Origin: Eledone cirrhosa
Lineage: Eukaryota
DNA length: 64,000 bases
Direction: 5' to 3'
NCBI GenBank assembly: GCA_964016885.1
Contig: OZ024741.1
Span: 257,486,001-257,550,000, forward strand
In this document: in pieces, positions 18,885-39,820 of the stretch
Layout: each line of letters begins with the position of its first letter
Position numbering within the stretch: the first letter of the stretch is position 1
The notes under the pieces: model-generated
What the model was told of the DNA's origin: nothing
Seen by the model: the letters and a program-made list of their open reading frames with translations, nothing else
Databases searched by the model: none
Position numbers and translations under genes: made by a program

Positions 18885-19187
18885 ATATATATATAGTAAT
18901 AATAATAAATGTGAGTTTCAGAAGATGAAAGGGTGAAAGCAGCGATTCTTTGCTTAAACTTTAATCTGTTATTTTAATAAATATATATATATATATATAT
19001 ATATATATATATATATATATATATATATATATATATATATATATATATATATACATATATATATATATATAATTGTTTCTACTTTTGGTAAAAGGCCAGA
19101 AATTATCCCAGTGCATTACTGGTACTTTATTTTATCGACCCCGTAATATCACTACTCTGATTGCAGTTAATAAACATATTATCTTAC

Positions 19188-19337
19188 CTGAAACTGTTGC
19201 TCTAAAATTGATATTCCTGTTGAATGATCTATTTGCTTTATTCTAGAAAATTCTATCGGAATGTTATAGATATCAATATTATAATTCACTGTGAGAATAT
19301 TTTCAACTAATACATCATAAATGAACTCCAGTTGTAT
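19188..19337 (-). CDS. RPTP D1 end and D1-D2 linker exon (150 bp)
   Basis: tttttgtccag|IQLEFIYDVLVENILTVNYNIDIYNIPIEFSRIKQIDHSTGISILEQQFQ|gtaaga. Confidence 0.92.
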
Positions 19338-20200
19338 CTGGACAAAAAGTGAAATAAAATAAAATAAATCAGTTTTAATTGCATGAAACGAGAGCACCGT
19401 AATTAACAAATATATTTTTAGTAGGACAAATTTTGATATAGAAAATATATAGTAAGTTTTGTAGATGATAGGTTGATAAAGAAGGGCAAACACCTTCGTC
19501 TCATGCTTTTTGAACTTGAATTTGCTAAGATGAGTACAATAAACATTTAGGTTGAACTGTTATAGGTAAAAATTTCATTTTGGAAAACTTTTGGGTTTAC
19601 TGAATGTGTAAGATATGAGGTAAATGTGGATGGGTTAGATCAACGTTGATATCCAAAGATAGAAATGTTATTAAAAATACTAAGGAAAATAACTAAATTA
19701 AACATGGTAACATTTTGGTATGTTAAATTACTGATGCAACAGCTGTTCTCTGGAGAGAACTAGTTAAAAAAAGAAAACAATCAGAAACTGGCTTTACTAT
19801 ATGAAGTTGTTGAGATAGAGCAGGTGTGTGGAATAGAGGCAGAGAGAGAGAAAGAGAGCGGGGAAAATAGGGGAGATGAAACTTCTTCAACACTGGATGA
19901 TGTGTGTTTTTGAGAGAGTAAGGGGGGGGGGGAGATATGCTCTTTTAGTCTGTTGGATAATTGGTACTAACGCTCAAAAGAGAAAAGACAATATTGACCT
20001 TCAATTCAGAGTTCAGAAAATACTGCAACACAATCTATACAGTTATTTAATTATCCTACCTATCTACCACTCCCTTTAGAATTACAAATTGATAGTATAT
20101 AACAGCAATGAATATTACTGTTGGAATAAAATCTAAAAGCTAACCCAAGGGAGGTTTCATGAGTAGCTTCACAATCTTATTTACATTGATATTTACTCAC

Positions 20201-20336
20201 CCGTTTTTGAACCAACTGCATCCTATCTTCGCGTAATTTGCTGATGGTCGTCAATACATCAAAAGTTTCACCCTTCTTCATTTCATTTAGAAGTATGTCA
20301 ATGCAAATATAAGTTCCAGTACGACCAACACCAGCA
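20201..20336 (-). CDS. RPTP D1 exon, P-loop/Q-loop (136 bp)
   Basis: cctttcag|(S)AGVGRTGTYICIDILLNEMKKGETFDVLTTISKLREDRMQLVQKR|gtgagt; completes the VHCSAGVGRTG catalytic signature. Confidence 0.97.
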
Positions 20337-36390: not shown

Positions 36391-36466
36391 ACAGATTGAC
36401 TTTGTTAGTTTCAGAAGATCCCGTTAAGGGTGAAAGCAGCGATTCTTTGCTTAAACTTTAATCTGT
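36391..36466 (+). ncRNA. Extended type I hammerhead ribozyme motif, CAGAAGA core variant (also 39703-39778+, 21640-21715-, and partial copies)
   Basis: ACAGATTGA-ctttgtt-AGTTT CAGAAGA tCCCgttaaGGGt GAAA GCA..TGC TT AAACT TTAATCTGT; stems I, II and III pair by eye. Confidence 0.7.
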
Positions 36467-36604
36467 TATTTTAATAAATATTTGCTCTACGGTTCTTATA
36501 TATTTGATATATATTTATCCTTATCGAGTCCTCTTTGGATTTTAGTCTTCAAATTTATTATTATTACTATTTGGCTCCCTCGGTTGAGCACTCTATTTAC
36601 TTAT

Positions 36605-38739
36605 ATGATCATGCAGAAACAACATCTGAATATTTCTACAAAGAACATACCCGTACCAAGCAGGAAAACATACATAAAACTCCTGATACAGAAAACAGAC
36701 GCGTTCATTAAAAGGTTGCGTTGGCGTTCCTTTTATTTCGATAATCCGCGAAAAGCAGACAACAAACAGGATAAATTTGGGTTTAAAACCTATAATAACC
36801 CTCCGTGTAACCCAGCATTGCTACTCTTCAAAAATGATGTCTTGGAACTCATACGGAGTATCAAATTTCGGAATAGGAGCAATTCCTTCCAGCAGGACCT
36901 GAAGAATAGAATTCGTTCTATTAAGGATTCTAATGCCGTGCACGTCCATTCCGACAAAACTGGCAACCTATATCAAGTGGAGTGCAGTACTTACCATCAA
37001 CTACTACATAATGCTGTAACTAAGGATTACCGTAAAACTAATCGGTGCGTCATCAATGATATCAAGGATGGTGGGTTTAAAATCACCTCTGATCTCAACA
37101 TCCTGGACCGGACCGAACCCCTGGACCCTATTTCTCCCCACTTTACCCTGAAGGATCACAAATCGAATTTTCCGAACAACCCCTCTATTCGGCTTATTAA
37201 CCCTACAAAGTCCGATTTAGGTAGACTTAGTAAAAGGATTCTTGATAGAATCATACCTGAAATTAGAAGTTTGGCCCCTCTTGCACTGTGGAACAATTCT
37301 TTTGCGGTGATTGATTGGTTCAACGGCATATGCAACAAGGAACATTGCCGTTTTATCCAATTCGACATCAATAATTACTACTCCTCTATCACTTTACCAC
37401 TTCTCTTTAGAGCTATCAATTTCGCTAAAACACTCACAGAGGTTAAGGATTTCGAAGTTGATATCATCCCCATGCCCGTAAGTCGGTGATTAATTTCGAC
37501 GACTCTATTTGGATAAAAAAATCCAATAGTACCCCATTCGACGTGAGTATGGGCGCCAGCGATTCTGCGGAGGTTACTGATCTTATCGGCCTTTTCCTTC
37601 TTTTCTCTATCAAGGACGAATTCCCCAACGCGGGCGGTGGTTTATACCGTGATGACGGTCTTTTGACCATGACTAAGTGCGGCCCTCGTGCTTGCGACAG
37701 GTTCAGAAAAGAACTCATAGCCTTCTTTAAAGGCTTCAACCTCTCGATACAGTTTGAGGCCAACCTCTCGGTCGTTAATTACCTCGACGTTACCCTCAAT
37801 TTATCGAATGGCTTGTATTACCCGTATAGAAAGCCGAATGATACGCTTAATTACATAAGTAAGCATTCCAACCATCCTGCCAGCATACCCAAGAACCTGG
37901 TAAGAAACGTTTCGTTGAGGCTTTCCTGTCTATCTACTAACGAGCATATTTTCAACGACCATTTCACATATTACAATGAAGCTCTTGCTCGGAGTGGATT
38001 TGTCGATAAGGTAGTATATACAGAGTACGAGAATAGACCTAGAAGAAATAGATCCCGACGCATTATATGGTATAACCCACCATATAATATGGAGGTGGCC
38101 ACACCATTAGCTAAGATCTTTCTATCCATTATTACGAAGCATTTTCCCTCTACACATAAATATATTAAAATTTTTAATAGAAGTACTATTAAAATTTCTT
38201 ACTCTACGACTCCTAACCTTGCACATAACACCACAGCTTCAAATTTAGCTAAACTACCTAGCCGTAGGAACACGTGCAACCCTGTAGTTAGTACTAACTG
38301 TAATTGTAGGAATCGGGCTGATTGCCCCCTATCCGGGAAATGCCTCTCTAGTAACATTGTCTACAAATGTAAGGTTGAAACACCCACGTCCCGTAGGGCC
38401 TACATAGGGTTAACCGCCAATAGATTCAAGCAGCGTCTTTACATGCATACCCATTCTTTTCGTTACCCTCTAAGAAGGAATATGACGTCACTTTCAGCTT
38501 ATATCTGGAGTCTAAAAGACAACCACACCCAATATAAGTTACACTGAGAGATCCTAGCTAGGGCTAGATCGTATAACGGAAACAAAAGACCATGTGACCT
38601 CTGCGCCGCTGAGGCCCTGGAAATACTCTACGCTACAGACCACATCTTAAACAAAAAATCTGAGGCAATTTCGGCTTGTAAACATAAATTGCATAAAACT
38701 TTTCTGTATTACAGCCCCACATTATACCCTAACGGATAG
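36605..38739 (+). pseudogene. PLE RT-GIY-YIG ORF with one frameshift (about 37470) and one TGA (38545)
   Basis: STKNIP, SDKTGN, TLKDHK, RLINPTKSDLG, QFDINNYYSSI, MGASDSAEV, GLYRDDGL, WYNPPYN, CNCRNRADCPL, YIGLTANRFKQR; frame continues past the TGA (conserved Trp position) through CDLC..LNKKSE..CKH to TAG 38739. Confidence 0.9.
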
Positions 38740-39820
38740 TATGATCTATACGCGGATAATTTACGTCTTGATGTGGTAGCTAAGTATATGTTATGTTTAT
38801 ACCATTACTTATTTGCATAGGTAAGTATATATTACCTGTATGTTTCGTGAAGGTGCGTATACTTTCTAGTACGTATATTTGATTGTATATGTTATGGCGT
38901 ATATTTTATATATACTGGTACATATGCTTTTGGTTTTGTGTATACATGAGTTTTGCGTCTGTGTGAGTATGCGGGTTCGTACGTATGATGGGTGTGTGTA
39001 TATGTGTACTTCGTGTTTTGGTTGACGTACGTCTCCAAACATTTGTGTATTTACATGTAGGTATGTGTGTGCATTCGTTATATACGTATTTATTTATTTA
39101 TTTATATACGTTTAGATAATTATTTGTATACACGCACACACACATACATATTTATATGTACGTGTTTTTGTATACCTATGGCGAGTGTTTTGCGTATGCG
39201 TGTTTTGCGTATGCTTGTATACCTATGGCGAGTGTTTTGCGTATGCTTGTGTTTTGCGTATGTATTTGGATGCGTGTATGTATTTATTTAATTTCTATTA
39301 CCTCTGTATTTTATTTACTTTATTCTTAACTCTGAAGCGGAGAATCATTCGGTTTCCTAGTTAGAATTTTAGTCTACGACTTCAGTTATACCATTTACGT
39401 GGTTTTGTCTTTGCGTGCAATTGTTCTCCATGCTCCACATATGACGTGTTATCTTCGTTTTCTCCGTTCATTGCCAGAGAACGTCTCTATGAACCACCTA
39501 ATAGAATATCAGTCTACGACTTCTTTTATACCATAAACGTGGTTTTCTCTTTGCGTGTAATTGTTTTTCACCGCTCCAATTAATGACGTATTATATTCGT
39601 TTTTTCCCCGTTCTTTGCCAGGGAACGTTTCCACGAACCAAAGTATCGTCTTCCTGTCTTCCTCCGGTTGCAACGTTTTTTGAAATATCCACTTCTGCGT
39701 TTACAGATTGACTTTGTTAGTTTCAGAAGATCCCGTTAAGGGTGAAAGCAGCGATTCTTTGCTTAAACTTTAATCTGTTATTTTAATAAATATATATATA
39801 TATATATATATATATATATA

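Follow-up and report, generated by a model that had tools for sequence, protein, structure and literature searches.

A hammerhead-like motif with adenosine at core position 4, fixed in a Hydra-clade Penelope-like element lineage of Eledone cirrhosa

Hammerhead motifs of Penelope-like elements

The minimal hammerheads of Penelope-like elements (PLEs) described by Cervera and de la Pena (2014, PMC4209133) are type I motifs that lie in pseudo-long terminal repeats (pLTRs), occur as thousands of solo copies and are expected to have low activity; they have no stable stem III and supposedly work as dimers. In the Hydra clade of PLEs, the motifs of File S2 of Craig et al. (2021, PMC8557442) share a ctgaNgaT...Tgaa layout with mostly a U.U at the base of stem II and frequent U17. 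All of those motifs have U4, which their descriptor required, and their stem III is short and mostly palindromic. Here we describe a motif from a 64,000-nucleotide stretch of the Eledone cirrhosa assembly GCA_964016885.1 (contig OZ024741.1, positions 257,486,001 to 257,550,000; "the window" hereafter, whose internal positions are used throughout). It lies in the pLTRs of a 3.7-kb Hydra-clade PLE and follows the layout of the Hydra motifs, but it carries A at position 4 together with a loop III of 9 nt, a distal stem I with a bulge, and a loop II of the RNnA type. To judge from its sequence, it is a long-lived and selected U4A hammerhead motif that fails the canonical core at position 4 and otherwise probably resembles type I hammerheads.

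Changes at position 4 have precedents of another kind. A viable U4C hammerhead of peach latent mosaic viroid, cited second-hand in Perreault et al. (2011, PMC3088659), likewise has an altered position 4, with lower activity tolerated in vivo. That variant exchanges one pyrimidine for another in a viroid, whereas here a purine is fixed in a long-lived transposon lineage. The core variant reported for the minimal PLE hammerheads is U3:A8, not A4. No natural U4A hammerhead was found in the literature searched (figures and subscription papers lay outside its reach, and Fig. 5 or S7 of Perreault et al. may list one), and none is named in the accessible portions of 10.64898/2026.07.22.740005, PMC13725137, PMC3907566, PMC7229834, PMC6155905, PMC11014351 and PMC7151607.

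Position 4 and constraint on the fold

The segment at 36391-36466 can be read as a type I hammerhead in which three stems surround the core and stem I is open (Table 1). This agrees with the initial annotation, which had proposed this fold with its bulged and extended stem I, CAGAAGA core, U.U and CUU triplet. The core residues C3, G5, A6, G8, A9, G12, A13 and A14, the A15.1-U16.1 pair and H17 are all present; U4 of the CUGA turn is not, so that the motif is not a member of the canonical-core class and a CUGANGA descriptor would miss it, as that annotation had foreseen. A search of the window with Rfam covariance models gave no hammerhead match up to E=1, and it also missed the canonical motifs at 28913 and 57132. 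The CAGAAGA 7-mer by itself is hardly enriched, occurring 13 times in the window versus 6.2 +/- 2.7 expected by chance, and 7 of the 13 occurrences belong to the PLE family.

Adenosine at this position is a trait of the lineage, fixed in all subfamilies found. A 27-mer starting at G5 had 20,908 exact matches in the 3.0-Gb genome (reversed control, 0), and among the 18,927 exact matches that included the stem I prefix, 18,743 had A at position 4 and 184 had one of the other three bases, for a total of about 19,000 motif-bearing copies with A4. This bears out the earlier proposal of a family trait rather than decay of a single copy, which a genome-wide consensus of U4 would have overturned. The accompanying statement that every core-spanning copy in the window has A4 holds for seven copies; an eighth arm, which lies at an inversion junction on the minus strand (about 22342-22348), has CTGAAGA instead. 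Nor is the motif full length in all of them: it is complete at 36391-36466, but the copy at 18919 has lost stem II and those at 22353 and 22535 begin at junctions inside or at stem I.

A loose U4 pattern had 1,153 matches in the genome, and the 30 that were inspected consisted of 25 inversion junctions, 4 truncations into flanking sequence and 1 unrelated match; none of these 30, among the matches listed, had genomic upstream sequence, which argues against a hidden U4 subfamily at that depth of inspection. The U4 copies of the family are mostly products of inversion junctions, at which the near-palindrome TTC-A-GAA appears as TTC-T-GAA in the opposite arm. The converse idea, that A4 itself arose by inversion of a TTC-N-GAA palindrome, was not supported as an origin, as the oldest subfamily has N7=U and no palindrome.

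Older subfamilies were retrieved through loop III, through the flank 3' of the cut site and by BLAST. They kept A4 in 59 of 67 old-lineage copies (six had U4, and the four of these that were inspected were junctions), in 16 of 18 copies of the N7=U subfamily, and in 34/35 and 12/12 old-lineage copies having genomic upstream sequence. The trait thus persists in lineages that are 25-30% apart in their flanks, and the inspected matches of the loose U4 pattern included no U4 predecessor sharing its stems. Copies of the youngest subfamily are nearly identical (40/40 scored matches were 100% identical over 91 nt). Among 223 other hammerhead-like matches in 1.57 Mb, three had A4 and none represented a new family, and a metagenome scan gave 0 matches. 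As weak additional support, positions 36391-36453 are unchanged in one run of contigs that carries a second organism label.

Constraint on the fold was assessed in an alignment of 129 distinct copies with genomic upstream sequence, drawn from 202 matches, in which the young groups were deliberately enriched for non-A copies. Between the majority states of the youngest and oldest subfamilies, 0 of 54 stem and core positions differ, compared with 9 of 23 positions in the bulge, N7 and loops and 18 of 60 in the flanks (Fisher p about 5e-6 and 3e-6, respectively, with sites treated as independent). Within the core, the subfamilies differ only at N7, the free position. The length and inner bases of loop II vary, yet its first base is R and its last is A in each of 22 old copies; in a hand count of 67 old copies, 65 had the R start and 61 the A end. 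It matches the RNnA tertiary-contact motif, whose 3' A forms a pair with a U next to stem I (Dufour et al., PMC2632901), and U and Y candidates for the partner motif UNmYN adjoin stem I here. Some old copies were retrieved by patterns that required stems, which inflates the invariance; identical majority states were obtained with a set whose only anchor lay 3' of the cut site. Covariation in stems I-III, which the initial annotation had named as a check and whose lack it would have counted as a refutation, is absent within the A4 lineage: over 129 rows and 21 pairs no compensatory double change was common to copies (two single cells), and 22 of the 129 have in common a change from G.U to A-U in distal stem I. 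The evidence is accordingly invariance rather than covariation, and this invariance indicates selection on the complete hammerhead fold, including the R...A ends of loop II. The loop III of old subfamilies (36439-36447; AGAAATTCT, old copies L164 and L176) is near-palindromic and could allow dimer pairing; this near-palindrome has been lost in young subfamilies.

Probable RNA start, probable reverse transcriptase start sites and other families

A36407, where proximal stem I begins, is the initial base of many copies. A non-genomic base precedes it in 2,445 exact copies, and in 1,363 of these the base is G; at a control position one base upstream there were 738 copies, with G in 19/100 among the matches listed (hand count). 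The sequence farther upstream of the junction is heterogeneous, on which ground a spliced exon was rejected as the source of the G. The untemplated G is likely a cap fossil marking the start of transcription. The distal arm of stem I would then lie upstream of the start, so that the extended stem I, which can pair as the initial annotation described, would form only in 3'-pLTR or read-through RNA. At the other end, recurrent 3' ends at 36481 and 36570 are joined to (TA)n, and by analogy with PAc Poseidon, the Anolis element of Frangieh et al. (2024, PMC11167929), they are likely two start sites of the reverse transcriptase (RT). That element also has two internal RT start sites that define a tail and no ends at its cut site; it differs in its canonical core, in the protein-assisted cleavage shown for it and in belonging to another clade.

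A sister family from the Hydra clade (F3, L402 and L416; 21,845 matches, 46-57% amino acid identity) has U4 and resembles the A4 family in its 3-bp stem II set on a U.U, its 4-bp stem III with a long loop and its extra G. It differs in having a TATA box 30 bases upstream, a loop II without the R...A ends and other pairs in all stems. The extra G falls at the first base of stem I: among 2,065 non-genomic bases before stem I, G occurred in 79/100 among the matches listed (hand count), and the Gs are partly explicable by a switch across stem I. Because the stem III of this U4 family is equally long, a long stem III does not set the A4 motif apart, and neither does the U.U at the base of stem II, which, like U17, is common in published Hydra-clade hammerheads. 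The stem I pairs of F3 (L391-L480) differ between its subfamilies.

Two more families were noted in the genome. One (F2, L361-L390; 5,739 matches) has a minimal U4 hammerhead with a cluster of 5' junctions about 45 nt upstream of the core. The other, an abundant one (L529-L538, L307 and L356; 4,738 matches), has a fixed C4, reading CCGAAGA, with C in 99/100 among the matches listed. The U3:A8 core variant occurs in several hammerhead motifs (L030, L050, L079, L212 and L323).

Possible cleavage and alternative roles of the motif

We slightly favor the interpretation that the A4 motif is an attenuated, still selected, slow hammerhead, that is, a tertiary-stabilized and possibly protein-assisted self-cleaving ribozyme. 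The catalytic and tertiary residues (G8, G12, A15.1-U16.1, H17 and the R...A loop ends) are all kept and only N7 and the loops drift, as would be expected if catalysis were selected. Among the conserved core bases, position 4 tolerates change best: the natural U4C is viable, another family of this genome has fixed C4, and no U4 change was selected among the ribozyme-killing mutants and revertants described for MS2 (PMC4075628). Published mutagenesis nevertheless predicts that activity with A4 would be reduced. A U10.1.U11.1 is tolerated in hammerheads (PMC3088659), PLE hammerheads are reported to be slow (PMC4209133) or protein-assisted, and one can require its protein to cleave (PMC11167929). 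Under this interpretation, transcription would begin where proximal stem I begins, and capped, uncut RNA would be copied by the RT from the two internal start sites, which would yield the many solo pLTR inserts. The R...A of loop II may dock on the U and pyrimidine residues beside stem I and so partly offset the lost U-turn contact of U4, and slow cutting would matter mainly in 3'-pLTR or tandem read-through RNA, where distal stem I can form.

Besides the missing covariation and the retrieval bias noted above, a number of observations weigh against cleavage. The hammerhead is not the minimum-energy fold at 36391-36466 (-12.3 versus -15.1 kcal/mol, z -0.63; folding z-scores of the motif are near zero), and it makes up about 1% of the predicted ensemble, 2-3 fold below natural U4 copies and within the range of F3, with A4 raising a rival UUUCA/UGAAA helix 2-3 fold. 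Adenine has no imino proton for the bond that U4 makes to the A6-N7 phosphate. That contact is described for U4 in PMC3088659, mutants of the CUGA turn had low activity in a pairwise mutational scan except for the C3:G8 swap (PMC9901934), and cleavage was dispensable for insertion of the Anolis PLE in vitro (PMC11167929). The 1,363 G-bearing inserts imply that RNA uncut at the 5' motif served as a template at least 1,363 times; in F3, too, uncut capped RNA would have been a template. Tail-bearing copies differed at the cut-site position 36452 in only 224 of 11,970 cases and gave no junction pile-up there; 30 inspected differences comprised 15 point mutants, 7 switches across stem I and 8 other junctions. 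The U4 sister F3 has likewise few such differences (55) and no cut-site junctions, so this test does not distinguish an active motif from a dead one; motifs would also stay intact after circle formation or strand transfer, which makes such junctions uninformative.

Alternatively, the motif may be a hammerhead fold without catalytic activity that is retained to bind or position the RT and endonuclease or as part of a promoter or 5' leader, which we regard as possible, though less likely than slow cleavage. The low activity of CUGA-turn mutants, the lack of cut-site junctions and the insertion without cleavage in vitro all fit it, as does the placement of the motif, whose first base coincides with the probable start of transcription and whose end lies 15-30 nt short of a likely RT start site. 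The retention of every catalytic residue is harder to reconcile with such a role, and a promoter would not demand that positions -16 to -8 pair with +52 to +60. In the opposite direction, and doubtful on present sequence evidence, the motif may be an active purine-4 hammerhead rescued by tertiary contacts. With the start inside stem I, the 5' copy would be short-stemmed and capped and the 3' copy would gain the distal helix and cut; the cut would set the RNA's 3' end and a 46-nt terminal repeat, and cDNA made near the cap could jump to the 3' end and rebuild the pLTR. If this were true, it would amount to LTR-like strand transfer built from a ribozyme.

It is very unlikely that A4 is kept for a role incompatible with U4, such as a TTTCAG 3' splice acceptor after a pyrimidine tract or an A4-U11.1 off-switch helix. 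In every subfamily the bulge is rich in pyrimidines and has AG at its end, the Penelope intron of Drosophila virilis ends at the 5' end of helix I (PMC4209133), and the minimum-energy fold does pair UUUCA with UGAAA; however, junction copies show heterogeneous upstream sequence plus one G with no shared upstream exon, and the rival helix is worth only ~1 kcal/mol. Least likely of all is that A4 inactivated the motif and spread by hitchhiking with a single recent master copy, the motif now decaying neutrally. The near-identity of the youngest subfamily and the failure to find a U4 predecessor would suit this explanation, but it is already largely refuted by the span of A4 across diverged lineages without stem or core change, to which the endonuclease fragments, only 64-77% identical, add.

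These results bear on the role of hammerheads in PLEs. Should A4 prove able to cut, ribozymes are being undercounted by the hammerhead core consensus and by all CUGANGA searches; should it not, selection is preserving the complete fold for a noncatalytic job. A single genome with three abundant families having U4, C4 and A4, two of them close in architecture, along with natural U4 copies of the A4 family, offers a panel for rate measurements. From genomic sequence alone, the putative cap-G fossils would place the start of transcription, in two families, at the base with which stem I opens, and so constrain models of PLE replication.

Host element and other features of the window

The element at 36062-39793 consists of an inverted pLTR arm, a 5' pLTR with tail, an open reading frame (ORF) for RT and GIY-YIG endonuclease domains, and a 3' pLTR. 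Its motifs and (TA)n insertion identify it as a Hydra-clade PLE by the defining features given by Craig et al. (2021, PMC8557442): the protein has RWR and DKT and lacks DKG, it carries the CNCRNRADC linker and a C-terminal VYKC..YIG, CDLC and CKH, and insertion is into (TA)n targets with tandem or inverted pLTRs. A Pfam search with the element protein gave no RT or GIY-YIG match. The ORF is interrupted twice, first by a frameshift (near 37480) and then by a stop (38545-47); other copies read through these points, so the family has had intact frames.

Table 1. Positions of the hammerhead-like motif, its host element and related copies in the window
Feature	Position	Strand	Remarks
Type I hammerhead-like motif, 5' pLTR copy	36391-36466	+	Distal and proximal stem I, stems II and III
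Distal stem I	36391-36399 / 36458-36466	+	
Bulge in stem I	36400-36406	+	7 nt
Proximal stem I	36407-36411 / 36453-36457	+	
Core CAGAAGA (C3-A4-G5-A6-N7-G8-A9)	36412-36418	+	A4 = 36413
U.U at base of stem II	36419 / 36431	+	
Stem II CCC/GGG, GAAA, stem III GCA/TGC	GAAA at 36432-36435	+	
Loop II	36423-36427	+	Matches RNnA tertiary-contact motif
Predicted cleavage site	36452-36453	+	After CUU triplet (end 36452), by hammerhead numbering; no junction pile-up
Probable RNA 5' end (transcription start)	36407	+	Untemplated G in 1,363 copies, heterogeneous upstream, control one base upstream
Inverted pLTR-plus-tail arm	36062-36235	-	Core 36212-36218
5' pLTR (to 36481) and tail (to 36570)	36220-36570	+	Both ends are recurrent 3' ends joined to (TA)n
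RT and GIY-YIG ORF, Hydra-clade PLE	36605-38739	+	RWR, DKT, YRDD, CxCX5C, CxxC, CxH
3' pLTR	39492-39793	+	Second hammerhead 39703-39778 (core 39724-39730), (TA)n end
Solo pLTR fragment	18913-18985	+	Starts with extra G ahead of stem I; stem II missing
Inverted pair of pLTR fragments	21618-21936		Core 21688-21694 on minus strand
Head-to-head pair	22172-22429		Minus arm U4 at junction; plus arm A4 (22353-22359)
Head-to-head pair	22423-22690		Plus-arm core 22535-22541

The 3' pLTR region contains a diverged 140-bp tandem duplication (39362-39640), preceded at about 39327-39370 by an inverted repeat that contains CTGAAGC and is not parsable as a hammerhead. Other fragments of Hydra-type PLEs, 29-54% identical to the main protein, lie at 16-2135, 3541-4375, 18633-18890, 34761-35582, 58892-59014 and 60078-60964. 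Canonical hammerheads of two other families occur at 28907-28960 (minus strand), about 32350 (plus strand) and 57030-57180; one of these families flanks an 808-amino-acid PLE ORF at 29193-31619, and the other forms an inverted pair. Finally, the segments at 10410-12723, 13173-14949, 25541-26023 and 52033-53010, which we take to be fragments of several non-LTR reverse transcriptase genes of the LINE (long interspersed element) type, sit among dense AT/AC microsatellites.

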